Shown here piece after piece: positions 41,825-57,793 of a stretch of 64,000 nt of DNA. Position numbers and translations under genes: made by a program. The notes under the pieces were generated by a model. The model was not told the origin of the DNA. It saw only the letters and a program-made list of their open reading frames with translations, and did no database searches. The stretch's first letter is position 1. Each line of letters begins with the position of its first letter. The stretch covers positions 96,001-160,000 of the forward strand of contig JAVLKG010000001.1 of assembly GCA_032128875.1 (NCBI GenBank), read 5' to 3'. The stretch is from Candidatus Melainabacteria bacterium 17Bon1m (lineage in GTDB: Bacteria > Cyanobacteriota > Vampirovibrionia > Obscuribacterales > Obscuribacteraceae).

Positions 41825-42814
41825 TTGGGCGTATTTGAATCTGTAGCTGACGCAATCGGCAACACTCCTATCGTAAAAATGAAGCGATTTGGCGCACAGC
41901 AAAATCACAATCACAATCTGTGGGCCAAGCTGGAATATCTCAATCCAGGCGGTTCCGTAAAAGATCGAATTGCGAAAAACATGATCGAGCAAGCGGAGCG
42001 CAAAGGTAAGCTGAAGCCCGGTGGTACCATTATCGAGGCTACAGCCGGCAACACTGGTATCGGTTTAGCAATGCTCGCCGCAATGCGCGGATACAAGCTC
42101 ATCACGATTGTTTCGCAGAAGGTGAGCCAGGATAAAGTAAAACTGTTGAGAACGCTCGGTGCGGAAATTGTAATTACTCCAACCGGCAAGAAGATGGGCG
42201 ATCCGGATCATTTTTTGAGTATCGCCAGGAGATTGACGGAGGAGCATGATGGTTGGTTCGTCGATCAATTCTACAATCCAGACAATGCGCAGGTTCATTA
42301 CGATGTGACTGGTCCTGAAATTTGGGAACAAACTGAGGGTGCGGTCGACGTGATTGTTGCAGGTGCAGGAACCGGCGGCACCTTATCTGGTGCCGGTCGA
42401 TTTTTGAAGGAGAAAAAACCTTCGGTCAAAGTCATTCTCGCCGATCCGGTGGGAAGTATTCTTGCGGATTTATACGATGAAGAGAAAACGACGCCAGCGC
42501 AATACATTGTTGAAGGAATTGGGCAGGATTTTTTGCCGGGCAATTTCCATAAAGCCGTTATTGATTTTGCGATTCGTGTCACTGACGAACAATCAGTTCA
42601 AGCGGCTTATGACTTGATGAAGTTTGAAGGGCTCTTTGGTGGAAGCTCATCTGGATGCATCGCAGCGGCTGCTGCAGCTTGCTGTGTGGATCTTGAAGGC
42701 ACTGGTAAAAATGTACTTGCGATTTTGCCAGATGGTGGAAGAGGTTATATGAGCACCATATATGATGACTCGTGGATCAAAGAGAAATTTCCGAACAAAA
42801 CGTTCGAGCGATAG
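41825..42814 (+). CDS. PLP-dependent cysteine synthase / cystathionine beta-synthase family
   Basis: KLEYLNPGGSVKDR, EATAGNTG, GAGTGGT and EGIG motifs. Confidence 0.92.
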   Translation: MGVFESVADAIGNTPIVKMKRFGAQQNHNHNLWAKLEYLNPGGSVKDRIAKNMIEQAERKGKLKPGGTIIEATAGNTGIGLAMLAAMRGYKLITIVSQKVSQDKVKLLRTLGAEIVITPTGKKMGDPDHFLSIARRLTEEHDGWFVDQFYNPDNAQVHYDVTGPEIWEQTEGAVDVIVAGAGTGGTLSGAGRFLKEKKPSVKVILADPVGSILADLYDEEKTTPAQYIVEGIGQDFLPGNFHKAVIDFAIRVTDEQSVQAAYDLMKFEGLFGGSSSGCIAAAAAACCVDLEGTGKNVLAILPDGGRGYMSTIYDDSWIKEKFPNKTFER

Positions 42815-42945
42815 TACGAGCGAAACATCTTTTTCTGCGCTTTTGATTTTGGACAAAGCACAATCTTTGCTTTAACTCCTTATATAGGGTGGCGGCAGCT
42901 TAAGCTCTATGACCGATATATGTGATTGGTCCCGTCTGGATATCT

Positions 42946-43320
42946 GATCGCCGCGACTTTAGTCTGGACAGTTGATCCGGCGCTTGTTAACAGAAAGTGC
43001 TTTGCGATCTCTATGTCTGAAGCGCATCTCTATAATGCCAAGAATGTGATCGTTAAATGATCTATGGGGTAGTTGATCGTATGCGCTGACGCGATAAACT
43101 AATTGCATAACCGGTGAGCACGTCACTTAAATGTTGAGTGCTTTGAGCCGAGGGGCATTTGTGGAAACTTCAGATCGGCGTCGATCGGAAACCGTAGCAA
43201 AAAGCCCGCACCACGTGAAGGACTGACTGAAGCGTGATGAAATACTGAGCTCTAATGCAAAGAGCAGTCAGGCAGTAGTAAGAATACCAGCGCAGAGCAA
43301 TCTGGCTGGTATTTTTATTT
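42946..43320 (+). repeat. ~370-bp dispersed unit, copy 1
   Basis: Collinear with the copies at 44638, 46276 and 56054; has one extra nucleotide relative to them. Confidence 0.97.
43107..43316 (+). ncRNA. Putative ~210-nt structured RNA, copy 1
   Basis: TTGATC(43073)-16 nt-TAAACT(43095) upstream; covarying stems; terminator 43283-43316. Confidence 0.72.
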
Positions 43321-43368
43321 GCGCCCAACGGACGGCGCGCAGCCTTCAGACTCCATTTCGAAATCGGC

Positions 43369-43515
43369 CGCAGCGCCGGACTCCAGACGGCTTTTTCTGG
43401 GAGCGCCAGCTTCCAGCCGGCTTTTCTGGGAGCGCCAGCTTCCAGCCGGCTTTTTCTGGGACCGTCGGCTTCCAGCCGGCTTTTCCTGGGAGCGCCGGCG
43501 GCTCGCCGGCTTTTC
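43369..43515 (+). repeat. Five tandem ~30-bp REP-like palindromes
   Basis: Consensus GGGAGCGCCRGCTTCCAGCCGGC-TTTT(T)CT. Confidence 0.88.
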
Positions 43516-43564
43516 TATAATGGAGAAGGAAACGCCTCTTTATTAGGCTGCCGGTCCACAATCT

Positions 43565-44599
43565 ATGTCGCTTCTCCTTCAGATTTCACTAGCGTTCGTT
43601 TTTCTTCTTTGGATACTTCCAATAATCCGAGGAGTTGAAATCTGTTTTCGCTCCATAACTCGTTTGTTAGGCGACTCCGCCGATCCCGATAGAGGTGCTC
43701 CTGCGCTCCTTGTCCCAAAGGAAGTTGAGCGCGATGTGCTTCGCCCTATCCCCTTCACTGATCATCGCTACCAGGAGCTCAGGAATGATGTGATTCGAGC
43801 TCGTGCATTGCTTAATCGTTCGCTGGATACTCAACTCGAACTTGAAGAACAGATTCGCGAACTGGAAGAAATCCCTCAGCATCAGGAAGCCGCAGTTACA
43901 GCAGATGCCATTGCAAGACTTCGGAAGGAAATCGATGAGCTTGCTCCACAGCACGACGCTCTGCGCGCTGAGCTGGCTGATAAGGAAAGCGCACTGCAGA
44001 AGGCTTATCCATTGAGACCGATGAGAGGCGCTGCTACAAAAACTGCATCTGCCGTCAAGAAAGAAAACCAAGCCCGTATTGCTAAGGCTGTTCAAACCAA
44101 AATTGACTTTGATGTCAAAAGACGCGAAGAATTTGCGAAAGAAACAAGGCATCGTGCTCAGATTCTTGCGCACATGCGCCTTGTCATTGACGCAGTTGAG
44201 AAACATGCAGTTGGTAAGAGGCGCATCGAAGAGTTGAAAGTCACGATGGAGACTTCGCACCGAGAGATTGAGACAATTAACGCTGTTCTCGCCGAGTGGG
44301 AGTCGAATGAAGATTTCCTATCAGAGAAGTTGGCGACCTTTGAAACCGGCAATGAAGCATTGCAGCGGAGAGTTGAAGAAGCCGCTCAGCGAGACGATCT
44401 CGAGGCTTTGGATGAGGCAGAGATGTTGCTGCTTGAACGTCAGGTTCAAGCCAGTAAGTTCAAGCTTTTGCTGGAAGACTCAATAAAGCAGGGGACCGAG
44501 TTGAAGGAATTGGGCAATAGATTCGAGAAAGTTCGCATTGCTATTTTGAAGAAGATTGTGGCAATTGAACCTAACTATCTCGATTTTAGGGTTGATTGA
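43565..44599 (+). CDS. Membrane-anchored coiled-coil protein, PspA/IM30-like
   Basis: N-terminal TM; YQELRNDVIRARALLNRSL...LRAELADKESALQKAY; paralogue of 45154. Confidence 0.72.
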   Translation: MSLLLQISLAFVFLLWILPIIRGVEICFRSITRLLGDSADPDRGAPALLVPKEVERDVLRPIPFTDHRYQELRNDVIRARALLNRSLDTQLELEEQIRELEEIPQHQEAAVTADAIARLRKEIDELAPQHDALRAELADKESALQKAYPLRPMRGAATKTASAVKKENQARIAKAVQTKIDFDVKRREEFAKETRHRAQILAHMRLVIDAVEKHAVGKRRIEELKVTMETSHREIETINAVLAEWESNEDFLSEKLATFETGNEALQRRVEEAAQRDDLEALDEAEMLLLERQVQASKFKLLLEDSIKQGTELKELGNRFEKVRIAILKKIVAIEPNYLDFRVD

Positions 44600-44637
44600 T
44601 ATCGTTGGACTGGTCACGATGCTGTGTTTTTATATCC

Positions 44638-45013
44638 GATCGCCGTGGCGGTAGCTGCGCTTGTTGATCCGGCGCTTGTTAACAGAATTCGAATTGCGAT
44701 CACTATGTCTAAAGCGCATCTCCAAAATGCCAAGAATGGGATCGTTAAATGTACTGTGGGGTAGTTGAACGTATTTGCAAACGCGATAAACTAATTGCAT
44801 GAACGGTGAGCACGTCACTTAAATGTTGAGTGCTTTGAGCCGAGGGGCTTTGCGGAAACACTAGATCGGCGTCGATCGGAAGCAGTAGCAAGAAGCCCGC
44901 ACCACGTGAAGGACTGACTGAAGCGTGATGAAATACTGAGCTCGGATGCAACGAGCAGTCAGACAGTAGTAAAAATACCAGCGCAGAGCAATCTGGCTGG
45001 TATTTTTGTTTTT
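44638..45013 (+). repeat. ~370-bp dispersed unit, copy 2
   Basis: Collinear with the other copies. Confidence 0.97.
44799..45007 (+). ncRNA. Putative ~210-nt structured RNA, copy 2
   Basis: TTGAAC(44765)-16 nt-TAAACT(44787); terminator 44974-45007. Confidence 0.72.
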
Positions 45014-45050
45014 GCTGATTTGCGCGGATGCGCTGCCCGAGAGAGTGGCC

Positions 45051-45107
45051 GGAGCGTCAGCTTCCAGCCGGCTTTTGCCTGGGAGCGCCGGCGGCTCGCC
45101 GGCTTTT
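45051..45107 (+). repeat. Two REP-like palindromes (same family as 43369)
   Basis: GGAGCGTCAGCTTCCAGCCGGC and GGGAGCGCCGGCGGCTCGCCGGC. Confidence 0.85.
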
Positions 45108-45153
45108 ATAATGGAGTCAGGAACGCCATTGTGAAGGTTGTCGGAGCCTCTGT

Positions 45154-46236
45154 ATGTCGCCACTCCTGGGAATCTCACTAGCGATAATTGTTTTGCTCTG
45201 GGTGATTCCGCTTGCTTGGGCGGTTTCAACTGGCATACGCGCACTACCTCGTTTGGTCGGGGAGTTGATTGATTTCTTCAGAGACTTTTCCAAGCTCAGG
45301 AAAATGTCTGAAGGCGAAAGACACCTCTTGCGCAAAGAGTTACAGCTGGAAGCCGACTATCAGAATCTTCAGGATGAACTGATCCGTATCCGAGCTCTTC
45401 TTGCACGTACAATCGCTTTCAAAAAAGAGCTACTTACAAATATTCAGTCATTGACCAACGAAATATTGGAGAGCGATGCAATTCGAAAGTGCTCAGACAA
45501 TGAGCACCTTTCTGCCCGTGAACGACTTAAAGCGCTTGAACGAGAAGCTGCTGAAGTTGAATTTAAGATTGCTTCTCTTCGTTTTGAGCTGGAAGAGAAA
45601 GAGCTAGGAGTAATGCGAGCTTATTCTAGAAAACAAGTTGTGATTGCCAAAGACAAAGCTGACAATGCTACCGAGAAGGCGCGCAAAATTCTCGACCTTG
45701 TGGAAGCACAACATGCTGAAAATCCGTTACTTAAAATGGAGTTGAAGGTTCGGGCTCGGGAGGCTTCGGCTGATGCAGGTCTTGGTTCTGCAGTTTCTCA
45801 ACAGGCTCTTTCAACCTTTGTTGAGGCAGTTTTTCGCTTGCACATTGAATCTATGCCCTTGGAAAACCTCCAGAAGCTGATTCAACCAATCAATGATGTT
45901 GTAGGAGAGGTCACATCACTTGTGCTGTACCGAGAAGCTATCGAAGAGGTTTTGTCAATGCAGATGAGGTCTTCGGAAGCCGATCTACAGTCTTGGAAGC
46001 ATAAGGCAGCTGAAGCTGCCGCAGAAGATAGACAGTTGCTCATTAAGCAAGCAGAGGTCAATCAGCTTGAGTGCGAAGTTCAGATCGCAAAACAAATCCG
46101 TCAGCTCAAAGAGGAAAGAAACAAATTGGCTGATCTCAGACTCCTTGAAATGAAACTCGCAAAACGAAAAGACGAGATTCTGATGAAGATCGCCGACCTT
46201 CAGGGTGGAGATATGGACTTTTCGCCTGGCGAATAG
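45154..46236 (+). CDS. Membrane-anchored PspA/IM30(Vipp1)-like protein
   Basis: N-terminal TM; YQNLQDELIRIRALLARTIA, RKQVVIAKDKADNA and LLKMELKVRAREASADA resemble PspA helices. Confidence 0.78.
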   Translation: MSPLLGISLAIIVLLWVIPLAWAVSTGIRALPRLVGELIDFFRDFSKLRKMSEGERHLLRKELQLEADYQNLQDELIRIRALLARTIAFKKELLTNIQSLTNEILESDAIRKCSDNEHLSARERLKALEREAAEVEFKIASLRFELEEKELGVMRAYSRKQVVIAKDKADNATEKARKILDLVEAQHAENPLLKMELKVRAREASADAGLGSAVSQQALSTFVEAVFRLHIESMPLENLQKLIQPINDVVGEVTSLVLYREAIEEVLSMQMRSSEADLQSWKHKAAEAAAEDRQLLIKQAEVNQLECEVQIAKQIRQLKEERNKLADLRLLEMKLAKRKDEILMKIADLQGGDMDFSPGE

Positions 46237-46275
46237 TGGTTGTGCACATGTGTGTTTCCCCTGTTCTAATAGTCT

Positions 46276-46649
46276 GATCGTTGTAGTGTTAGCTGTGTCT
46301 GTTGATCCGGCGCTTGTTAACAGAATTCGTTTCGCTATCGCTATGTCCGAAGCACATCTCGATAATGCCAAGAATGAGATCGTTAAATCATCTCTGGGGT
46401 AGTTGAACGTATTCGCAAAGGCGATAAACTAATTGCATAACCGGTGAGCACGTCACTTAAGTGTTGAGTGCTTTGAGCCGAGGGGCTTTGCGGAAACACT
46501 AGATCGGCGTCGATCGGAAACCGTAGCAAGAAGTCCGCAACACGTGAAGGACTGACTGAAGCGTGATGAAATACTGAGCTCGAATGCAACGAGCAGTCAG
46601 GCAGTAGTAAGAATACCAGCGCAGAGCAATCTGGCTGGTATTTTTGTTT
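46276..46649 (+). repeat. ~370-bp dispersed unit, copy 3
   Basis: Collinear with the other copies. Confidence 0.97.
46437..46645 (+). ncRNA. Putative ~210-nt structured RNA, copy 3
   Basis: TTGAAC(46403)-16 nt-TAAACT(46425); terminator 46612-46645. Confidence 0.72.
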
Positions 46650-46785
46650 GCTGTGGTCGCCTTAAGAAGAGTATACTCACGGCAATCAAGCAGTCTGCCT
46701 CTCACTTGACTTTGTTGGTGAATGGTTCAGCAATGTTTTCTCATTTTTTTGTCTTGCAGGGAACATTGGCGCGTCCATCGGCTCT

Positions 46786-49700
46786 TTGATTGAGGAAACT
46801 CTCTTCACTGACCGGTGGTGGATGAAGCAGGTATCGCTTCCAATTTTTGCTCTCTTAGAAGGTGGAAACAGGCAGGAATTCTCTGCTGAAGAGCTGCCTT
46901 TGCGGGCTGAGCTGTTCAGCGCCGACCAGATGGAGCAGCATGGCAGGACCCTTGCCGGACTTCATAAGGTTGAATTTGGGCGAGCGCCAGATCAGCTGTT
47001 GGCTCGCCTGGCAGAAAACGAGCAGGTTTTGACTTATGCCTGCAATATGCTCACAGAAGCCGTCAATGACAACAGACGCATTACCTCTGCCGGTGAATGG
47101 CTTCTAGACAATTTCTACCTGATCGAAGAGCAGATAAGAACAGCCAAGAGGCACTTACCGAAGGGCTATAGCCGGGAATTACCTCACCTGATCAGTGGTG
47201 TGTCAGTGGGATTTCCTCGGGTCTATGACATCGCGCTGACCAATGTTTCGCATGGCGATGGAAAGTTGGACCCGGATAGCCTCGATCGTTTCGTGGCTTC
47301 TTACCAGACTGTCACAGAGTTGAAGATTGGCGAACTGTGGGCTATCCCGATTATGTTGCGGTTGGCTCTCATTGAAAACTTGAGAAGAGTCGCAGTGCGA
47401 ATGGTTATTCATATGAATGAGCATTTGCAGGCTGGTATCTGGGCCGACAAAATGATCGATGTAGCGACCAGTGATCCCAAAAGTTTGATTCTCGTGATCG
47501 CAGATATGGCGCGCTCCAATCCACCGATGGTAAGCGCTTTCGTCTCGGAGTTAGCTCGAAAGCTGCAAGGGCAAAGTTCGTCTCTGGCTTTAGGGCTGAC
47601 ATGGATGGAACAGCGTTTGGCAGAAGCCAGCACCTCCATTGAACAAATGGTACAGGCTGAAGCGCAAATTCAAGCTGCTGACCAAGTTTCGATCAGCAAC
47701 AGCATTGGCTCGCTTCGCTTTCTGGGAGCCATGGACTGGCGGAAGTTTGTTGAAGGGCAAAGCGTCGTTGAAAAAACTCTTCTTGAAGATCCGTCTGGTG
47801 ACTACGGCAAGATGGATTTTTCCACTCGTGACGATTACCGACACGTTGTTGAAAAGCTGTCAAAGAAATGTCGGTTGTCCGAAAAAGAGATTGCGCTTGC
47901 TGCGGTACAACTGGCGAAGAGCAATAAAAATGGTGATGCGAGAAGTAAGCACGTCGGTTTCTATCTGATTGATAAGGGACTGCCGGAACTTGAGAAAACG
48001 GTCGCAGTCAGATTTTCTCTCTGGGATTTGTGCAGACAGTTTGGACGCAGATATTCGCTCATCTCCTATCTGGCTCCAATATTTCTTATTACTTTTGCAG
48101 TCACCGCTGCACTTGCATACGCTGCACATGCGCATGGTGAATCCAAACAGTTTGTCGCAATTACCGCCGTAGTTACATTCGTCAGTGCCAGTCAGTTAGC
48201 CGTATCCCTGGTGAATTGGCTGGCGACCCTTCTGATTCCATCCAAACCGCTTCCGAAGCTTGATTACTCCAAAGGAATTCCTCGCGAGGAACGAACTTTA
48301 GTAATCGTCCCCACGATGATCTCGAGCGTTAGCAATATTGAAGATCTCGTAGAAGCCCTCGAAGTTCGCTTTCTTGCCAACCGAGACGAGAACTTGAGCT
48401 ATGCCTTGCTGACGGACTTTCTCGATGCTGACTCCGAATCGTTACCGCAAGACGAACTCTTGGTGAAAACGATAACCAGCAAGATCAATGAATTGAATCA
48501 GAATTACAAGTCCGGTCCGCGCGATATCTTCTTTCTCTTTCATCGGCCTCGTTTATTCAATCCAGCCTCAAATGTTTGGATGGGCTATGAACGCAAGCGG
48601 GGAAAATTGTCCGCGCTGAATAGTGTTCTTCGTGGAGGCAGTGCAGATTGCTTTTCAACTATTGTCGGCGACTACAAGTCGCTGGTTGGCACCAAGTTTG
48701 TAATCACGTTAGACACCGATACACAGCTTCCGCGTGATGCCGCCCGGCAATTTGTCGGCGCGATGATGCATCCTCTGAATAGAGCGCATTTCGATGAAAA
48801 CAGAAAATTGGTAACCAGTGGATATGGGATTCTTCAACCTCGCGTTGGAGTTTGCCTGCCCGGCACAAGTCTGTCTCGCTATGCGGCTCTGCAGGGAAAT
48901 GATCCTGGTATAGATCCTTATACTCGGGCTGTTTCTGATGTATACCAGGATGTGTTCTATGAGGGCTCATTCATCGGTAAAGGTATTTACGATGTTGAGA
49001 TTTTTGAAAAAACGCTAAGTGATCGTTTCCCTGAAAACTGCATCCTAAGCCACGATTTGCTCGAAGGCTGTTACGTGCGTTCTGGACTTTTAAGCGACGT
49101 CCAACTTTACGAAGAGTATCCCTCCGGTTACAGTGCAGACGTCGCCAGGCGTCATCGCTGGATTCGTGGTGACTGGCAGATCATTTCATGGTTAGGCGGG
49201 GATGTTCCTGTTTTAGGAAAGAGAAGGCAAAAAAATCCAGTTTCCTTTCTATCGCAGTGGAAGATCTTTGACAATTTACGCCGAAGCCTTGTACCTTCAT
49301 CGCTAGTTACAATGTTGATTGTGGGCTGGGTTTCACCGTCACCATCTTGGATTTGGACTGCATCAGCCTTGGCGATCCTTTTCATTCCTTCAATCGTCTC
49401 TTCTTTGTTGGAGTTAGTACGTAAGCCTGAAGACGTTCTCTGGAATCAGCATATTGCAAGCGCTCTGAGTTCTTCTGCGCGCAATTTGGGGCAAGCGATG
49501 TTCAATCTCGCGTGTCTTCCGTACGAAGCAACATACAGTCTTGATGCCATCTTTCGAACTCTGTTTCGCATGACTGTGACGAAAAAACATTTACTGGCTT
49601 GGTATCCGTCGAGTGAAGCCAATCGCAAACAACGTCGAGATTTCGTGGGCATTTATTCCCAAATGTGTAGCGCACCCACAATTGCATTAGGTGTTCTTGC

Positions 49701-52700
49701 TTATGTGATTGCGCAAAAGCCATTAGATATTGTTGCTGTTGGACCGATAGTCTTGCTCTGGATGTTTTCGCCGGCGATTGCCTGGTGGTTGAGTCGTCCG
49801 CTAGCAGTTAGTGGTTCCAATCTGACTGACGAACAACGTATTTTTCTTCGCAAAATTGCTCGTAGGACATGGGCTTTTTTCGAGACATTTGTAACGGCTG
49901 AAGACCATTGGCTGCCACCTGATAACATGCAAGAGTTGCCTATACATGTGGTTGCACATCGCACGTCGCCAACCAACATGGGAATGTCTTTATTGGCCAA
50001 CCTCGCGGCTTACGATTTTGGCTTTATTCAGTCGGGCGAATTGGTTGAGCGCACGTACAGCACCCTGGTGACAATGCGTGCTCTAGATAGTTATAGAGGG
50101 CATCTCTATAACTGGTATGACACTATAACGCTTAAACCGCTCAAGCCCTTGTACGTGTCCACTGTAGACAGCGGCAATCTCGCTGGACACCTTATCACAC
50201 TGAAAGCTGGACTCTTGGAGCTGTTTGATGAGCCAGTAATCTCCGTGCAGGTCTTTTCTGGACTACAAGATACGCTTGACGTGCTCAAACAGACTGTCGG
50301 GGAGAAGATTGTTATCCCTGAATTAACCACATTTGATGACCTTCTCAAGACAGCGAAACTTGACCCTCCTACCACAGTCACTGGTCTTCATGAATGGTTC
50401 GAGCAACTTCAGAAATGCGCTGAAGAAATAACCATTCGCGTTGGCGAAACACCGGGCACGGAGATAAAGCATTGGGTGCAGGCTCTTAAACGTCAGGTGT
50501 CTGCTGCGTTGATGGAGCTGACTTTGTTGATTCCGTGGACGGCGTTGCCGGGCTTGAATACTGTGTCTGAGAGGATCCCGCAGATTGAACAGACTCCTAC
50601 TTTGCGAGAACTGTCAACAATATACGACAGCCTGTCTCCGATCATTCAGAAGAGTTGTACGTCTGACCGTCCAATGCAAGAGCTAAAATGCTTCGCCGAA
50701 TTGTTGGCGCTCCTTTCCGAAGCCAGTCGTCGCGCAAAGGAGCGCATCGGCATTATTAGTCAACTTGTGATGCATGTCGAAGAACTAGCCCAAATGGAAT
50801 ATGACTTTCTTTATGACAAAAGCAAAAGGTTGCTGGCGATCGGTTATAACGCCGATGAGAAAAGAGTGGATGCCAGCTACTACGATTTGCTCGCGTCCGA
50901 AGCGCGTTTGTGTAATTTCGTCGCGATCGCACAGGGGCAGTTGCCGCAGGAAAGCTGGTTTGCTCTGGGACGGTCGTTAACAACGGCGGGTGGCAAGCCC
51001 GTGTTGTTCTCCTGGTCTGGCTCCATGTTTGAATATTTAATGCCATTGCTGGTAATGCCAAACTATAAAAATACTCTGCTAGATCAAACATACCATGCGT
51101 CAATTGAGAGACAAATTGAATACGGTAATCAGCGAAATGTGCCATGGGGAATTTCCGAGTCAGGGTATTTCGCGGTTGATGCGCATCTCAACTACCAGTA
51201 TCGTGCCTTTGGTGTTCCCGGGTTAGGCTTAAAACGTGGATTGGCGCAAGATCTGGTTATTGCGCCATATGCGACGGTGCTGGCATTAATGGTGGTGCCT
51301 GATGAGGCCTGCGAAAATTTGGAGAGGTTGACGTCTGAAGGTTTCGCAGGATCATACGGATTTTATGAGGCTGTTGACTATACTGCCGCGCGAATTCCGC
51401 GCGGACACAGCAGAGCAATTATTCAATCGTATATGGCGCACCATCAGGGCATGAGCTTTCTCTCCCTTGCTTACACTCTGCTCGATCAACCTATGCAACG
51501 GCGCTTTGTGAGCGATCCATCATTTCAATCTACTCTACTTTTGCTGCAAGAGAGAATACCTAAGGCGACGGCGTTCCACTCGCAAACGGCAGAAACCGCA
51601 GAGGTGCGCTTCGGGTCCGCGGCTGATGAAGCGCCGGTCCGTTTCTTTAGCAGTCCTAATACGACAGTTCCCGAAATACAGCTACTATCCAACGGTCGAT
51701 ATCATGTGATGATGACGAACGCGGGCGGCGGCTACAGCCGCTGGAAAGACCTGGCTATAACCAGATGGCGTGAAGATACAACGCGCGACAACTGGGGAAC
51801 GTTTTGTTTTATTCGGGACGTATCAACCGGTGAATTCTGGTCGACAGCATATCAGCCAACTCTCAAGCAACCCGATAGATACGAAGCAATTTTCTCTGAG
51901 GCACGTGTCGAGTTCCGCAGGCGCGACTTTGATTTCGACACACATACCGAAATCGTCGTTTCTTCAGAGGACGATATTGAGTTGCGAAGAGTACGCATAA
52001 CAAATCGCTCCCGGTCACGCAAGACGATTGATGTGACGAGCTATGCTGAAGTTGTGCTTGCAAATCCTAATCATGATAATGCGCACCCTGCATTTAGTAA
52101 TTTATTTGTGCAAACGGAGCTTATCGATCAGGGTCATGCAATTCTCTGCAACCGCCGACCGCGATCTGCGAATGAGCATCAGCCGTGGATGTTCCATTTG
52201 ATGTCTGTTCATGGTGCCACCACAGGAGATGTGTCACGAGAGACAGATCGTGCGAAGTTTATTGGCCGTGGAAATTCACTCTCTAACCCTTCTGCTATGA
52301 ACACTCCGGGACTGCTATCGAATACCCAAGGTTCTGTACTTGATCCTGTCGTTTCGGTTCGTTATCAAATAGTTCTTGACCCTGAAAAGTCCGCGATAGT
52401 AGACATAGTTACCGGTGTTGCCGACACCAGAGAAACTTGCATTAGCTTGGTCGAGAAATATCAGGATAGAGGGCTTGCTGATCGTGTTTTTGATTTGGCC
52501 TGGACACACAGTCAGGTTGTGTTGCGTCAGTTGAACGCTAATGAAGCGGACGGTCAACTTTATGCTCGCTTGGCGAATTTAGTGGTCTATGCAAGCAGTA
52601 CACTGCGCGCCGACGCTTCCGTGATAATCAAAAATCGGCGTGGTCAGTCCGATTTGTGGGGATATGCAATATCCGGCGATTTGCCGATTGTTTTGCTGCA

Positions 52701-55533
52701 GATCCGTGACCCTAATAACATTGACCTTGTCAGACAAGTTGTACAAGCGCATGCGTACTGGCGTCTCAAGGGGCTTGCCGTTGATCTCGTTATTTGGAAT
52801 GAAGATAAAGCGGGATATCGACAGCTGATTCAAGACCAGATCATGGGCTTGATCGCTGGTGGCGTTGAGGCTAGTCTGATAGACAGGCCCGGTGGAATAT
52901 TTGTCCGTCAAATTGAACAAATTTCGATTGAAGATCGTATTTTGTTGCAAACGGTCGCCCGCGCAATTATCAAAGACAGCAATGGAACTCTCCCTGAGCA
53001 GCTTAATCGGCGCAGTGTGCGGGAAGTTCGGATGCCGGCTCTAACTCCTGTGCGCACGCATCAGGCTGAAAGCAAATCTAGTGTTGTTCCGCAAAGAAGT
53101 GATTTGATATTTTTCAATGGTTTGGGAGGCTTTACTTCTGACGGTCGAGAATATGTAATTAGCACTGCGCACGGTCACGTGACTCCGTTGCCTTGGGTAA
53201 ATGTGCTGGCTAATCAGTTCTTCGGCTCCGTTGTCTCCGAGAACGGACTTTCTTATACCTGGCTTGAAAATGCCCATGAATTCCGACTCACTCCTTGGCA
53301 CAACGATCCAATCACAGATGAGTCAGGAGAAGCATTTTATGTCCGCGACGAAGAGACCGGTCACTTCTGGTCACCAACCCCGATGCCTGTGCGCGGTGCT
53401 ACTCCGTACACAACACGTCACGGTTTCGGGTACAGTGTATTCGAGCACACCGAGGGCGGTATCACAACGGAATTGTGTGTGTTCGTTGTCCTTGATGCGC
53501 CAGTGAAGATATCTGCACTTAAGGTCCGCAACAATTCGGGGCGTGCAAGAAAATTGTCTGCAACAGCCTATTTCGAATGGGTATTCGGTGATCTGCAACC
53601 TAAGACCGTCATGCATGTTAGCACCGAGATTGATACAAAGACTGGAGCCCTGTTCGCGCGTAATCCATATAACAGAGAATTCGGAGACCGGATCGCTTTT
53701 GTAGACGTCGACGACATCATGCGTTCTGTAACCGGGGATCGAGCGGAATTTCTTGGGCGCAACGGAAGTTTGCGCAATCCCGCAGCAATGAGTAAGCAAA
53801 AACTGTCGGGTCGAGTTGGCGCTGCACTTGACCCTTGTGGTGCTGTGCAGGTTGCATTCGATCTTCAAGACGGTGAAGAGAGAGAGATTATTTTCCGGCT
53901 TGGTATCGGACGCGACGAAAGCGATGCCAATAATTTGATCAATCGCTTTCGCGGCAGCAAAGCCAGAAACGATTCATACGAAGCGCTTTGCCAGTATTGG
54001 AAACACACTCTGGGCGCACTCAACGTGCAGACACCCGATCCTGCATTAAACATGCTGGCAAATGGCTGGTTGCTATACCAGACGATTGCCTGCCGCCTGT
54101 GGGCTCGAAGCGGCTACTATCAGTCCGGTGGTGCTTTTGGTTTTAGAGATCAGCTTCAAGATGCTATGGCACTAGTGCACACAGAACCATTGCTTTTGCG
54201 AAAGCAATTGCTCTTATGCGCTTCGCGCCAGTTCGTGGAAGGCGATGTTCAGCACTGGTGGCACCCTCCAACAGGACGTGGTGTTCGTACGCGTATTTCG
54301 GACGATTACCTCTGGCTGCCCCTGGCTGCTTGTCGCTATGTAATGATGACCGGTGACACAGGTGTTCTCGACGAGCAAACGCATTTTCTTACCGGCCGCC
54401 CAGTCAATCCTCAAGACGATTCCTATTATGATTTGCCGGGGCGTTCGCAAGAAACAGCGAGCCTTTATGAACACTGCCAGAAAGCCATCCTGAATGGCTT
54501 GAAGTTTGGTGTTCATGGTTTGCCGTTGATGGGAACAGGCGATTGGAACGACGGTATGAATCTCGTCGGCGAACACGGGGAGGGCGAGAGTGTTTGGTTA
54601 GGTTTCTTCCTTCATGAGGTTTTGCGAAGATTTGTTCAATTGGCACGTCTTCGGAAAGACGAAGCATTTGCGAGTCGCTGTGAAGCGGAAGCCGCGCAGT
54701 TGAGGCAACACATTGCAAAAAGTGGATGGGATGGGGAATGGTATCGTCGCGCCTATTTTGATGACGGAACACCACTAGGTTCTTCCACAAACCCTGAATG
54801 CAAAATCGATTCTATTTCGCAAAGCTGGTCAATCCTGTCCGGCGCTGGAGAAATTGAACGTTCTAAGAAGGGCATGCAATCTGCGTATCAGCATCTAGTT
54901 CGCCACGAAAGTTCTTTGATTCAACTTCTTGATCCACCCTTTGATAAATCTGAGTTGAATCCTGGCTACATCAAAGGCTATGTTCCTGGTGTTAGAGAAA
55001 ACGGCGGACAGTACACCCATGCAGCAATTTGGTTGACAATGGCGTTTGCTGCACTTGGAGATAGCAAACGAGCCTGGCAGCTGTTCTCGATGATAAATCC
55101 GGTAAACCATGCGCTCGATCCCAACAGTATGCAGACCTACAAAGTAGAACCATATGTGGTGGCGGCGGACGTCTATGCTGTTTCGCCGCATACTGGGCGA
55201 GGTGGGTGGACTTGGTACACAGGTTCAGCAAGCTGGATGTATCGCCTGATTATCGAATCAATCTTAGGTATCCGCCTGCAAGTTGACCAGCTTCGCTTTC
55301 AACCCTGTTTGCCGGAAGAATGGCCTGAATTTAAAATCCACTACCGCTATCGCGAGACTGTTTATCACATAACAGTGATTCATAGAGCTGACAACGAAAA
55401 GCATCAGACGGTTACACTGAATGATGTAGTCCAACCTGATGGCGCGATAAAACTGGTCGACGATCGACGCGAGCATCTTGTTGTCGTGAGTGTTGGTCGC
55501 AGCTCGGAACGTACTTTTTCACCAACAGCCTGA
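46786..55533 (+). CDS. ndvB: Cyclic beta-1,2-glucan synthase (GT84 plus GH94 phosphorylase domains)
   Basis: EWLLDNFYLIEEQ, WMGYERKRGK, SHDLLEG, RRHRWIRGDWQ, YQSGGAFGFRDQLQD, GDWNDG and RENGGQYTH; 2915 aa; start may be ATG 46822. Confidence 0.95.
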   Translation: MIEETLFTDRWWMKQVSLPIFALLEGGNRQEFSAEELPLRAELFSADQMEQHGRTLAGLHKVEFGRAPDQLLARLAENEQVLTYACNMLTEAVNDNRRITSAGEWLLDNFYLIEEQIRTAKRHLPKGYSRELPHLISGVSVGFPRVYDIALTNVSHGDGKLDPDSLDRFVASYQTVTELKIGELWAIPIMLRLALIENLRRVAVRMVIHMNEHLQAGIWADKMIDVATSDPKSLILVIADMARSNPPMVSAFVSELARKLQGQSSSLALGLTWMEQRLAEASTSIEQMVQAEAQIQAADQVSISNSIGSLRFLGAMDWRKFVEGQSVVEKTLLEDPSGDYGKMDFSTRDDYRHVVEKLSKKCRLSEKEIALAAVQLAKSNKNGDARSKHVGFYLIDKGLPELEKTVAVRFSLWDLCRQFGRRYSLISYLAPIFLITFAVTAALAYAAHAHGESKQFVAITAVVTFVSASQLAVSLVNWLATLLIPSKPLPKLDYSKGIPREERTLVIVPTMISSVSNIEDLVEALEVRFLANRDENLSYALLTDFLDADSESLPQDELLVKTITSKINELNQNYKSGPRDIFFLFHRPRLFNPASNVWMGYERKRGKLSALNSVLRGGSADCFSTIVGDYKSLVGTKFVITLDTDTQLPRDAARQFVGAMMHPLNRAHFDENRKLVTSGYGILQPRVGVCLPGTSLSRYAALQGNDPGIDPYTRAVSDVYQDVFYEGSFIGKGIYDVEIFEKTLSDRFPENCILSHDLLEGCYVRSGLLSDVQLYEEYPSGYSADVARRHRWIRGDWQIISWLGGDVPVLGKRRQKNPVSFLSQWKIFDNLRRSLVPSSLVTMLIVGWVSPSPSWIWTASALAILFIPSIVSSLLELVRKPEDVLWNQHIASALSSSARNLGQAMFNLACLPYEATYSLDAIFRTLFRMTVTKKHLLAWYPSSEANRKQRRDFVGIYSQMCSAPTIALGVLAYVIAQKPLDIVAVGPIVLLWMFSPAIAWWLSRPLAVSGSNLTDEQRIFLRKIARRTWAFFETFVTAEDHWLPPDNMQELPIHVVAHRTSPTNMGMSLLANLAAYDFGFIQSGELVERTYSTLVTMRALDSYRGHLYNWYDTITLKPLKPLYVSTVDSGNLAGHLITLKAGLLELFDEPVISVQVFSGLQDTLDVLKQTVGEKIVIPELTTFDDLLKTAKLDPPTTVTGLHEWFEQLQKCAEEITIRVGETPGTEIKHWVQALKRQVSAALMELTLLIPWTALPGLNTVSERIPQIEQTPTLRELSTIYDSLSPIIQKSCTSDRPMQELKCFAELLALLSEASRRAKERIGIISQLVMHVEELAQMEYDFLYDKSKRLLAIGYNADEKRVDASYYDLLASEARLCNFVAIAQGQLPQESWFALGRSLTTAGGKPVLFSWSGSMFEYLMPLLVMPNYKNTLLDQTYHASIERQIEYGNQRNVPWGISESGYFAVDAHLNYQYRAFGVPGLGLKRGLAQDLVIAPYATVLALMVVPDEACENLERLTSEGFAGSYGFYEAVDYTAARIPRGHSRAIIQSYMAHHQGMSFLSLAYTLLDQPMQRRFVSDPSFQSTLLLLQERIPKATAFHSQTAETAEVRFGSAADEAPVRFFSSPNTTVPEIQLLSNGRYHVMMTNAGGGYSRWKDLAITRWREDTTRDNWGTFCFIRDVSTGEFWSTAYQPTLKQPDRYEAIFSEARVEFRRRDFDFDTHTEIVVSSEDDIELRRVRITNRSRSRKTIDVTSYAEVVLANPNHDNAHPAFSNLFVQTELIDQGHAILCNRRPRSANEHQPWMFHLMSVHGATTGDVSRETDRAKFIGRGNSLSNPSAMNTPGLLSNTQGSVLDPVVSVRYQIVLDPEKSAIVDIVTGVADTRETCISLVEKYQDRGLADRVFDLAWTHSQVVLRQLNANEADGQLYARLANLVVYASSTLRADASVIIKNRRGQSDLWGYAISGDLPIVLLQIRDPNNIDLVRQVVQAHAYWRLKGLAVDLVIWNEDKAGYRQLIQDQIMGLIAGGVEASLIDRPGGIFVRQIEQISIEDRILLQTVARAIIKDSNGTLPEQLNRRSVREVRMPALTPVRTHQAESKSSVVPQRSDLIFFNGLGGFTSDGREYVISTAHGHVTPLPWVNVLANQFFGSVVSENGLSYTWLENAHEFRLTPWHNDPITDESGEAFYVRDEETGHFWSPTPMPVRGATPYTTRHGFGYSVFEHTEGGITTELCVFVVLDAPVKISALKVRNNSGRARKLSATAYFEWVFGDLQPKTVMHVSTEIDTKTGALFARNPYNREFGDRIAFVDVDDIMRSVTGDRAEFLGRNGSLRNPAAMSKQKLSGRVGAALDPCGAVQVAFDLQDGEEREIIFRLGIGRDESDANNLINRFRGSKARNDSYEALCQYWKHTLGALNVQTPDPALNMLANGWLLYQTIACRLWARSGYYQSGGAFGFRDQLQDAMALVHTEPLLLRKQLLLCASRQFVEGDVQHWWHPPTGRGVRTRISDDYLWLPLAACRYVMMTGDTGVLDEQTHFLTGRPVNPQDDSYYDLPGRSQETASLYEHCQKAILNGLKFGVHGLPLMGTGDWNDGMNLVGEHGEGESVWLGFFLHEVLRRFVQLARLRKDEAFASRCEAEAAQLRQHIAKSGWDGEWYRRAYFDDGTPLGSSTNPECKIDSISQSWSILSGAGEIERSKKGMQSAYQHLVRHESSLIQLLDPPFDKSELNPGYIKGYVPGVRENGGQYTHAAIWLTMAFAALGDSKRAWQLFSMINPVNHALDPNSMQTYKVEPYVVAADVYAVSPHTGRGGWTWYTGSASWMYRLIIESILGIRLQVDQLRFQPCLPEEWPEFKIHYRYRETVYHITVIHRADNEKHQTVTLNDVVQPDGAIKLVDDRREHLVVVSVGRSSERTFSPTA

Positions 55534-55624
55534 TTTCACTGGTTGTTGCTGCCGTAGATCCGATTGAATCCGCTGTCGTTGGAGTTTCTTAGCATTCGCC
55601 GGACCTAGCTAGTAAGCGTAGATG

Positions 55625-55658
55625 AATACCGGCGCAGAGTACTCCGGCCGGTATTTTT
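55625..55658 (+). terminator. Intrinsic terminator after ndvB, homologous to the terminator of the repeated unit
   Basis: AATACCGGC-GCAGAGTACTCCG-GCCGGTATT-TTT. Confidence 0.8.
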
Positions 55659-55804
55659 GATCTAGCGTTCAATTCGGACTGCTTTGGCGCAGGCGCGCAC
55701 GGTCAGTCGCAAAACGATAAATGTAGGAAATGGATTTTTCGGCGTAAGAAAGGCCTCAGTGCAGCTGCAATAACGCTCTTTCTAGTGGCTTCGGATTGTC
55801 CAGA

Positions 55805-55888
55805 TTAATGCAAGAAGCCGAACAACCACAGAAGGGCAATAATGCCGGTCGGAACGCCGCAAATCCACAAAATGAATGCCTTACCCAT
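55805..55888 (-). CDS. 27-aa single-helix membrane microprotein
   Basis: MGKAFILWICGVPTGIIALLWLFGFLH*, with GGAG...AGGA upstream; below the ORF-track length cutoff. Confidence 0.7.
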   Translation of the reverse strand: MGKAFILWICGVPTGIIALLWLFGFLH

Positions 55889-56053
55889 GATCCTATTTAC
55901 TCCAATTTTGTCAGTGATTTTCCGTACACCAGCGAGACTGGGCGCCTGTGGGAAAAGTTCCTTCTGAAAACCGGGAACCCTGGGAAGTCAGGATGGGCGG
56001 GGTATAGCGGTATCAGTAGCGGGGTATATCTAATCGATCTCGCGAACGTATAC

Positions 56054-56431
56054 GATCGGCGCTTTTGCTGACTCGCCTGTTGATCCGGCGCTTGTTAACA
56101 CAACACGTGCTGCGATCGCTATGTCCAAAGCGCATCTCGATAATGCCAAGAATGGGATCGTTAAATCATCTATGGGGTAGTTGAACGTATTCGCAAACGC
56201 GATAAACTAATTGCATAACCGGTGAGCACATCACTTAAGTGTTGAGTGCTTTGAGCCGAGGGGCTTTGCGGAAACACTAGATCGGCGTCGATCGGAAACC
56301 GTAGCAAGAAGCCCGCACCACGTGAAGGACTGACTGAAGCGTGATGAAATACTGAGCTCATTTGCAATGAGCAGTCAGGCAGTAGTAAGAATGTCACCGC
56401 AGAGCAATCTGGGTGGCATTTTTGTTTGTTT
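56054..56431 (+). repeat. ~370-bp dispersed unit, copy 4
   Basis: Collinear with the other copies; terminator stem carries compensatory changes. Confidence 0.97.
56215..56423 (+). ncRNA. Putative ~210-nt structured RNA, copy 4
   Basis: TTGAAC(56181)-16 nt-TAAACT(56203); terminator 56390-56423. Confidence 0.72.
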
Positions 56432-56447
56432 GCTTTTGGGAGGCGTC

Positions 56448-57362
56448 ATGGAAGTTGGTGTAATCGGGCTCGGCAGTATGGGTTTCGCGATAGCTTCGCA
56501 CATTCTGGTGGCAGGGCACGAAGTTACTGTCTACAACCGCACCGAGGAGAAAGCACATCCTTTAATGGAAGATGGCGCAATGTTCTCGCATGATCCTGCC
56601 GGTGCTGCGCAGGGAGACGTGGTCATCACGATGCTATCCGACGATCACGCTGTCGAGAGTGTGGTGTTTGGAACAACAGACGCTTCAGGTGGCACTCAGA
56701 ATGAAGCGGTCGACGGATTGCTAATGCATCAAGCTCCGGATTGTATACATGTTTCGATGAGCACCATCGGCGTTCAGCTGGTGAAACGGCTCGAGCGTGA
56801 GTACGCTGCTAAAGGAAAGCAATTTATTTCCGCGCCTGTGATGGGGCGTCCAGATGTCGCTGAGCGCGGAGAATTAGTTGTTATGGCATCTGGAAGCAAA
56901 GCTGCAATTGAGAAGTGTCAACCTGTGTTTGATGTAATTGGCAGAATTACTCACGTGGTTGGTGACAGCCCTGTGCAAGCTGCAACGATAAAGCTTGCAG
57001 CAAATTTTATGCTTAGCTCGATGATAGAGACACTCGGCGAGGCTTTCGCACTCGTGCGTAAGAATGGAGCGGACCATCACAAGTTCTTAGACATCATGGC
57101 GAAGGATTTTTTCAAATCACCCATATATGAAAAATACGGAGCAATTATTGCGCACGAAAAATTTGGTGGTGGTGCGTTCACCGTGAAGTTGCAAGAAAAG
57201 GATACGCGTTTAGCAGTTGCTGCGGCGATTGAATCGCAAGTTCCGATGCCGCTGTTATTTGCAATTGAAAACGCTTTTCTCAGTTCTATCGGACAAGGTA
57301 AAGGCGATATGGACCCTTGTGCTATTGCGCAACTTGCCGCCGAGAATGCCGGTTTGCGTTGA
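56448..57362 (+). CDS. NAD(P)-dependent 3-hydroxyisobutyrate/6-phosphogluconate dehydrogenase family oxidoreductase
   Basis: GVIGLGSMG, YNRT, SAPVMG and KLAANF motifs; GGAGG RBS before ATG 56448. Confidence 0.9.
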   Translation: MEVGVIGLGSMGFAIASHILVAGHEVTVYNRTEEKAHPLMEDGAMFSHDPAGAAQGDVVITMLSDDHAVESVVFGTTDASGGTQNEAVDGLLMHQAPDCIHVSMSTIGVQLVKRLEREYAAKGKQFISAPVMGRPDVAERGELVVMASGSKAAIEKCQPVFDVIGRITHVVGDSPVQAATIKLAANFMLSSMIETLGEAFALVRKNGADHHKFLDIMAKDFFKSPIYEKYGAIIAHEKFGGGAFTVKLQEKDTRLAVAAAIESQVPMPLLFAIENAFLSSIGQGKGDMDPCAIAQLAAENAGLR

Positions 57363-57412
57363 TTGTTTTCTTTGAATGCCTTTGATGTTTTTCTTTCAAG
57401 TAAAATCGATTT

Positions 57413-57793
57413 ATGCCCGGACCTAAAACAATCACGTTGTACAGACCTGTTGGCGCTAAAGAGTTAGAGCTCATCGCTGAAGCTAAATATTTGGCGTTTC
57501 CTCCTCGTCTCTTCTTCCAGCCTATTTTTTATCCTGTAATGAATGAAGAGTATGCGACGCAAATCGCGCGCGACTGGAACACCAAAGATGAGGCGTCTGG
57601 ATACGTTGGTTATGTGACCAAGTTCGAAGTTAGCAGCGAATACCTATCCAAATTCGAAGTTCAAGTCGTTGGTGCCGCGGATGTGCACCAAGAATATTGG
57701 ATTCCAGCCGAAGACTTGGAGAGTTTCAACAAAAATATTGTCGGCAAAATCGAAGTGATTTCGACGTTTGTTGGAGATAAAGCTAAGCAGTAA
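57413..57793 (+). CDS. Conserved hypothetical protein
   Basis: TLYRPVG..EL...FPPRL..QPIFYPV..EEYA.QIARDWN pattern, recalled as a widespread family of unknown function. Confidence 0.75.
   Translation: MPGPKTITLYRPVGAKELELIAEAKYLAFPPRLFFQPIFYPVMNEEYATQIARDWNTKDEASGYVGYVTKFEVSSEYLSKFEVQVVGAADVHQEYWIPAEDLESFNKNIVGKIEVISTFVGDKAKQ

Follow-up and report, generated by a model that had tools for sequence, protein, structure and literature searches.

Four repeats matching a known RNA family

We analyzed a 64,000-nucleotide stretch of Candidatus Melainabacteria bacterium 17Bon1m (contig JAVLKG010000001.1, positions 96,001 to 160,000, forward strand; hereafter the window), in which four direct copies of one unit, each followed by a protein-coding gene, correspond to the small RNA (sRNA) family poplar-1. 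The original prediction, made from the letters of this DNA, had described a four-copy unit of promoter, structured RNA and terminator under selection for RNA structure rather than for a protein. A repeat search (300 nt, 67-89% identity to the reference copy) placed the four copies on the + strand with starts at 42943, 44635, 46273 and 56051. According to an alignment of the four loci, about 350 nt are conserved per copy, starting about 130 nt upstream of the promoter-like pair and ending in a hairpin and T-tract. The promoter-like pair that had been reported, TTGA(A/T)C, 16 nt, TAAACT, is found in all four, and each copy is indeed a promoter-RNA-terminator unit. The parts of the units, with RNA starts inferred from the -10 box, are as follows:

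42973..43319, + strand: poplar-1 unit 1 (from the Rfam match and alignment); distal box TGATCCGGCGCTTGTTAA from 42973, GGGGTA box from 43066, -10 box TAAACT ending at 43100; RNA 43106-43319, Rfam core 43142-43282, terminator 43282-43319.
44665..45010, + strand: poplar-1 unit 2; distal box 44665, GGGGTA box 44758, -10 box ending at 44792; RNA 44798-45010, Rfam core 44834-44973.
46303..46648, + strand: poplar-1 unit 3; distal box 46303, GGGGTA box 46396, -10 box ending at 46430; RNA 46436-46648, Rfam core 46472-46611, terminator 46611-46648; pseudoknot strands CUGACU 46552-46557 and AGUCAG 46595-46600.
56081..56426, + strand: poplar-1 unit 4; distal box 56081, GGGGTA box 56174, -10 box ending at 56208; RNA 56214-56426, Rfam core 56250-56389.

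At the gathering threshold, an Rfam scan of the whole window gave exactly four matches, all of them to poplar-1 (RF03041; Rfam type 'Gene; sRNA'). Units 1 to 4 score 143.8, 148.7, 145.7 and 150.0 bits (E-values 2e-32 to 5e-34), which is 33-40 bits over the gathering score of 110.5 bits, and in all four copies positions 1-141 of the 141-nt model are matched without truncation. A permissive scan of unit 3 (E up to 10) returned no second family except one chance snoRNA match. We regard it as virtually certain that the four repeats are members of this known Rfam family. The original prediction had not recognized the RNA, had taken it for a possible new family, and had proposed an Rfam scan as a check; that scan, once run, gave a strong match to a known family, and the claim of novelty falls. 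The RNA is real, and its family is already catalogued and not new.

Poplar-1 has reportedly been described from metagenomic DNA only, and is said to have been noted originally for a tandem or clustered arrangement. The arrangement in the window agrees with this, three copies lying within 3.7 kb, and arrays in relatives are spaced at ~500-1400 nt. The host genome (7.55 Mb in 35 contigs, 50% G+C, 93% complete) carries eight copies: the four in the window, a pair on contig 10, and single copies on contigs 2 and 4. Fourteen control genomes gave no match to poplar-1. In the literature we found no paper naming RF03041 or joining Obscuribacter with non-coding RNA, and the word 'poplar' is absent from the main text of Weinberg 2017.

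Extent and fold of the RNA

All eight genomic copies share sequence on both sides of the 141-nt Rfam model. We built a covariance model on a 212-nt stretch that starts directly downstream of the -10 box and runs to the T-tract. In a first set of loci from relatives, each of the 46 untruncated matches (of 56) covers positions 1-212, and the remaining ten are clipped by the ends of loci or consist of terminator-only fragments. In a second set, every one of the 71 matches spans positions 1-212, including 11 from a distant family (f2). The natural transcript appears to be longer (~212 nt) than the Rfam model; apart from this, the window units show no difference in kind from Rfam poplar-1. The sequence beyond the model comprises about 36 nt on the 5' side, a hairpin that also pairs with model positions 1-2 and 6-9, and about 37 nt on the 3' side, the terminator.

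Building a covariance model from the copies and searching related genomes with it, a course suggested by the original prediction, recovered full-length relatives with strong covariation. In one alignment (A3), 96.9% of cells are paired vs 34-39% when pairing partners are slid, with double changes in 40 of 60 pairs. In the other (A4, 71 instances), the values are 92.3% vs 35-40%, with double changes in 48 of 60 pairs, and in neither case did any of 500 shuffles reach the observed value. Both alignments were fitted to the 212-nt model and hence favor it, but the slid control and the double-change counts still stand far apart. These results uphold the view that selection acts on RNA structure and not on a protein.

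The differences between the window copies were also confirmed. At the variable N:N' pair of the third stem, copy 1 has T:A, copies 2 and 3 have G:C, and copy 4 has A:T; the terminator stem AATACCAGC/GCTGGTATT becomes AATGTCACC/GGTGGCATT in copy 4. Between copies 3 and 4, 12 of the 213 aligned positions are changed; eight of the changes fall in stems, where pairing is kept every time, the same count as reported before. All details of the earlier observation that were checked hold, except for the outer pairing of what it called domain 3, CTGACT/AGTCAG, which is not a local helix.

AGUCAG, a bulge on the 3' side of the third stem, is instead complementary to CUGACU in the loop of the preceding, second core hairpin, forming a pseudoknot of 6-7 bp. 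At least six contiguous pairs are possible in 95 of 99 distinct full-length sequences, in at least eight compensatory versions that include CUGGCU/AGCCAG, CUAGCU/AGCUAG, UUUGGCU/AGCCAAA, UUUAACAG/UUGUUAAA and UCUGAU/AUCAGA; with shuffled loops, six pairs were reached in 44 of 1980 trials. The pseudoknot is absent from the structure line of the Rfam cmscan. A local helix CUGA/UCAG in our own model showed no covariation and many unpaired cells; since it is unsupported, the UACU/AGUA pairing of Rfam together with the pseudoknot is the better reading.

The core otherwise consists of three stems, with invariant junction nucleotides and, in the first core stem, a symmetric internal loop of which both strands are an invariant GGAAAC. 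At the 5' end, the base CGGU of the added hairpin pairs with GCCG of the 5' tail (GAGCCG), which the Rfam model leaves unpaired, and the closing pair of this helix, 7-51, is C-G in 59 rows of A4 and G-C in nine. The terminator, which lies outside the core, shows double changes in all 14 of its pairs (A4), and its stem covaries with itself only. The minimum free energy of unit 3 is -72.8 kcal/mol (z -3.2), none of 200 shuffles being as stable, and the many conserved G-U pairs assign the RNA to the + strand. Docking of the terminator apex CAGAGCAAUCUG as a GNRA tetraloop was considered and rejected: the apex is unit-specific here (seven of its eight exact matches in the genome lie in units), yet its conservation does not extend to other genera or to f2.

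A promoter architecture confined to poplar-1 genes

Across genera, four boxes split by diverged spacers are found upstream of the RNA: the distal box GCGCTTGTTAA, ~130 nt upstream; TTAAATG; tGGGGTA(C/G)TT, which covers the -35 region; and the -10 box TAnAcT. The composite GGGGTA[CG]T, 19-25 nt, TAnAnT occurs seven times in the 7.55 Mb of the host genome, each time in a poplar-1 unit, and the eighth unit has a spacer insertion of ~11 nt. Seven of the nine genomic occurrences of the distal box also lie in units. From this pattern we infer that the boxes would bind a dedicated regulator.

On contig 10 (C10:81692-81760, locus L007) and in locus L015, the spacer from GGGGTA to the -10 box is ~11 nt longer, that is, by one helical turn. 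This hints that the GGGGTA box may be a factor-binding site that needs phase rather than a -35 hexamer.

Distribution in one bacterial order

Poplar-1 was found in 38 of 61 genomes (the window's genome and 60 relatives), at 1-12 matches per genome. Leaving aside the window's genome, 34 of 36 genomes of family f1 and all three of family f2, in the same order, are positive, as compared with none of 21 in other families of the class. Overall, 37 of the 39 other genomes of this one order carry the RNA. The f2 matches fall just under the Rfam cut-off, at 95.7-109 bits. Two f1 genomes (G029 and G031, 92% and 86% complete) stayed negative on re-search. An even sample of the phylum gave no match in 150 other genomes, which brings the count outside the order to 0 of 171.

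Judging from the sequence of a single gene, the positive order is probably the Obscuribacterales. For one neighboring gene, the closest named records are 'Cyanobacteria bacterium SZAS LIN-3' (60% identity) and 'Candidatus Obscuribacterales bacterium' (51%), and a record with an 82%-identical counterpart of this gene has two poplar-1 copies after it.

Copies at conserved loci

Among the options offered by the original prediction was a non-autonomous mobile unit, which we took more broadly to include a repeat spread by recombination. Such an element would account for a ~350-nt unit present eight times in the genome, non-transcribed upstream DNA included, and for one real copy on a 2.6-kb contig of a viral collection. 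However, in a tree of 23 copies from three species of the genus, syntenic copies group across the species, and some neighbors are conserved across genera. A search of the unit against 72,556 plasmid and 50,697 phage records gave no match, and of 43 viral-collection contigs matched by a 16-mer of the core, only the 2.6-kb fragment holds poplar-1 by the covariance model, the other 42 being something else. Upstream conservation is moreover limited to discrete promoter boxes between diverged spacers, and no terminal repeats were seen in the alignments, although no dedicated search for target-site duplications was made. The syntenic grouping and the lack of anything convincing in plasmids and phages argue that poplar-1 is not mobile, and we consider this explanation exceedingly improbable. 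By these comparisons, the copies sit at old, fixed loci. The same tree joins the four window copies with their counterparts in a single local clade, which fits an origin of the cluster by tandem duplication of an RNA-plus-gene module.

Genomic neighborhoods and a free-standing gene

We compared the flanks of 77 instances from good assemblies, in which open reading frames (ORFs) were called by a length-based heuristic. The downstream neighbor is co-oriented in 38 instances, plus five with ORFs of <150 aa, and convergent in 24, plus three with short ORFs; in six it is another complete poplar-1 unit, and in one there is none. In the host, the copy on contig 2 runs toward a convergent POT-family transporter gene and away from a UbiD-like gene in divergent orientation.

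The neighbors themselves have no common theme. Eight of ten convergent ORFs sampled against Pfam have clear domains that are mutually unrelated (POT transporter, methyltransferase, M23 peptidase, photolyase-related, AI-2E transporter, Ser/Thr kinase, Tad, alpha/beta hydrolase). Of 139 neighboring proteins, 69 are singletons and the recurrent ones reflect synteny within the genus; two neighbor families are shared between genera, namely an upstream PALP enzyme resembling cysteine synthase and a divergent UbiD-like gene. No recurrent functional class emerged among the downstream genes of this set.

In consensus and single-sequence folds, the core and the terminator form together and are not mutually exclusive, and the alignments show no third segment that covaries with the terminator arms. 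The convergent and tandem orientations, the themeless neighbors and the non-overlapping terminator point to a free-standing RNA gene and not an obligate 5' leader, and we are fairly confident that poplar-1 is such a gene, acting in trans.

Two further features of the neighborhoods were observed. In the convergent instances (e.g., L044, L055, L076), the stop codon of the opposing gene lies at a median of 53.5 nt from the RNA end, within 60 nt in 12 of 24, and the poplar-1 terminator may also end the transcript of that gene. On contig 4 (C4:40940-42210, locus L008), the ~1.27 kb between the copy and a dapB-like gene holds only implausible ORFs and gave no Rfam match; upstream, the opposite strand carries a tRNA gene (L008:639-710).

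Mode of action and alternative explanations

Among the options raised by the original prediction, a multicopy trans-acting sRNA family fits best, and the attenuator or riboswitch and the mobile unit do not. The explanation we favor, by a narrow balance of probability, is that poplar-1 is an autonomous sRNA gene of ~212 nt with its own promoter and terminator, whose product acts in trans and is recognized by a protein or ligand. Each copy would be driven by a promoter region that, within the genome, is unique to these genes; the RNA would end at its terminator and act away from its locus; several copies would raise the dose, and their common promoter would allow a joint response to one regulator. 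The compact pseudoknotted fold, with its invariant loop and junction nucleotides, points away from seed pairing or long antisense pairing and toward capture by a small ligand or a protein. Taken alone, binding of a protein or ligand as the mode of action is a tentative proposal, to which we give somewhat less than an even chance. Where a co-oriented gene abuts the terminator, as after unit 4, read-through may in addition couple that gene to the poplar-1 promoter.

Several observations weigh against this explanation. Co-orientation is somewhat commoner than convergence (43 vs 27, short ORFs included), and the gene calls in relatives rest on our own ORF heuristic rather than a gene finder. All four window units, and six of the eight genomic copies, lie upstream of co-oriented ORFs, and after unit 4 a start codon with GGGAGG (56438-56443; ATG 56448) stands only 22 nt past the modeled RNA end, a layout shared with one other species of the genus. 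CsrA and Hfq were both rejected as protein partners, neither being detected in the 93% complete genome; for CsrA (PF02599), the window's genome gave no match, while the control search was positive in three of 14 named genomes. Expression data give little help. Four public runs labeled RNA-Seq (X1-X4) contain 93% of sampled words, but assemble into contigs of 40-150 kb with a flat, DNA-like depth of ~20-40 across genes and spacers (window 42500-57500), and look like DNA or heavily DNA-contaminated libraries. Their contigs break at the edges of the repeats, and the depth of 564-744 in short repeat-core contigs could be explained by copy number and relatives. On the favorable side, one preprint reports enrichment of poplar-1, among other RNAs, in intracellular RNA from drinking-water communities.

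The prevalence of co-oriented genes and the layout of unit 4, which leaves no space for a separate promoter, would suit a cis-acting leader, either a riboswitch or a protein-dependent attenuator, that sets read-through of the terminator, sense into co-oriented genes or antisense into convergent ones. The structural complexity is aptamer-like, and, as in terminating riboswitches, a pseudoknotted conserved domain is followed by an intrinsic terminator; some poplar-1 copies stand immediately ahead of a gene. The gene after unit 4 may indeed depend on read-through; a Shine-Dalgarno-based start predictor proved unreliable (13 of 38 genes without a match) and was applied only to unit 4 and its counterpart. 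As a general rule, however, a cis attenuator or riboswitch is contradicted by orientation, with 24-27 of the 77 instances convergent and six followed by another unit with its own promoter. Unlike in terminating riboswitches, co-orientation is not obligatory, each tandem copy has its own promoter, the downstream genes are functionally unrelated, and the terminator stands outside the conserved fold with no third covarying segment seen that might serve as an antiterminator. Co-oriented genes have their first possible start at a median distance of 122 nt. We regard a cis-acting leader as quite improbable, though less so than a mobile repeat.

Alternatively, poplar-1 may be a trans-acting base-pairing sRNA or sponge, in which single-stranded segments such as GGAAAC pair with mRNAs or with another sRNA, as in the Yfr2 family of photosynthetic Cyanobacteria, which pairs with Yfr1. 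The number of copies (1-12 per genome), the mostly unrelated neighbors and the dedicated promoter are all compatible with this, and Yfr2-5 provide a precedent: in published work, they are multicopy (2-9 copies for Yfr2) at unfixed loci and carry a GGAAACA repeat, the conserved promoter element of yfr2 is bound by a GntR regulator that was found by DNA-affinity pull-down (PMC6191309), and the Yfr2 family binds Yfr1 and Yfr10 and serves as a sponge for Yfr1. Yfr2 may be regarded as the closest analogue in organization, since poplar-1 shares with Yfr2-5 the multiple copies, the unfixed loci, the twofold GGAAAC(A) motif and a family-specific promoter element, in a related host phylum. In poplar-1, however, the two GGAAAC motifs face each other across an internal loop instead of sitting in a hairpin loop, and the RNA is much larger, with several stems and a pseudoknot. 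As for homology, the permissive scan of unit 3 gave no Yfr2 match, presence of a Yfr2 model in Rfam 15 being unconfirmed. Against base pairing, most invariant nucleotides are not in an open seed but in helices, junctions, the pseudoknot or the internal loop, no other sRNA family came up in that scan, and Hfq was not detected. Antisense targets of the invariant 15-nt loop were sought and rejected: its complement occurs only as the antisense of the eight copies, and the loop is occupied by the pseudoknot. The complement of a 10-mer of the loop has 13 further occurrences, which is near chance by our own arithmetic. Base pairing seems unlikely, if less so than a cis-acting leader.

For capture of a protein by an autonomous sRNA, CsrB/CsrC and RsmX/Y/Z offer the obvious comparison, being protein-sequestering multicopy sRNAs with a conserved upstream promoter element and repeated GGA motifs. 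Poplar-1 resembles these sponges in having several copies with a common promoter element and repeated GGA-containing motifs. It differs from them in that its GGA motifs are located in internal and pseudoknotted loops and not in an array of hairpin loops, its fold is compact and not modular, and its host has no detectable CsrA.

Flanking genes and other features of the window

The genes that follow the units, and one additional terminator, are listed below:

43565..44599, + strand: gene after unit 1, encoding 344 aa with an N-terminal hydrophobic segment and a long coiled-coil-like region.
45154..46236, + strand: gene after unit 2, encoding 360 aa, a paralog of the 344-aa protein with a weak, sub-threshold PspA/IM30 match.
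46786..55533, + strand: gene after unit 3, encoding 2915 aa (predicted start) with GT2-like, glucoamylase-like, and GH94 supersandwich and catalytic domains.
55625..55659, + strand: terminator after the glucan-synthase-like gene, GAATACCGGCGCAGAGTACTCCGGCCGGTATTTTTG, matching only positions 173-207 of the 212-nt model.
56448..57362, + strand: gene after unit 4, encoding 304 aa, beta-hydroxyacid dehydrogenase-like (HIBADH / tartronate semialdehyde reductase family).

The 344-aa and 360-aa proteins share 27% identity over their full length (E 2e-19) and the same layout of a hydrophobic segment and a coiled-coil-like region, both being apparently membrane-anchored; no Pfam or NCBIfam family was assigned to either, and a first contig search with the 344-aa protein as query turned up no relative. 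Each of these paralogs is preceded by its own poplar-1 unit, and counterparts in two other species of the genus are likewise flanked. The 2915-aa protein matches PF06165 (3.9e-173) and PF17167 (3e-125), a domain set that we take to be that of cyclic beta-1,2-glucan synthases, and in three species of the genus a poplar-1 unit lies ahead of its gene. For the 304-aa protein, every NCBIfam score is under the curated cut-off.

The terminator at 55625-55659 closely resembles that of poplar-1 and may be what is left of a unit, or else a terminator that was copied; the related locus L020 also has a terminator-only match of this kind. After unit 1, at 43372-43514, a 30-nt unit (consensus AGCGCCGGCTTCCAGCCGGCTTTTTCTGGG) is found in 4.8 tandem repeats, with a shorter relative at ~45040-45105 after unit 2. 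These repeats fold as G+C-rich hairpins with T-runs, like stacked terminators, and contigs assembled from the public runs join or break there. The 13-mer core of the repeat has only seven occurrences in the genome, in five places.

Significance for poplar-1 and its hosts

Poplar-1 is one of many orphan structured RNAs that came from comparative genomics and have so far been without a host biology. Our analysis places it in a defined bacterial order and defines its likely full transcript, with a pseudoknot and a 5' helix that are missing from the Rfam structure line. It also argues against a riboswitch-type role and shows old, fixed loci. The promoter architecture exclusive to poplar-1 genes is a possible bait for the regulator. 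Obscuribacter-type bacteria are common in water systems and sludge, and in these hosts a motif of wood-chip metagenomes becomes experimentally approachable.

A bolder proposal, which we consider possible but rather doubtful, is that poplar-1 may be a global regulatory RNA specific to one lineage, the non-photosynthetic sister group of Cyanobacteria (Obscuribacterales-like), with a compact, pseudoknotted form of ~212 nt and made from up to 12 co-regulated genes. It would capture a protein or metabolite other than CsrA or Hfq, and its leaky terminator would wire adjacent sense and antisense genes into the regulon. If this is true, poplar-1 would fill in these bacteria the role that Yfr2, RsmZ or 6S has elsewhere.

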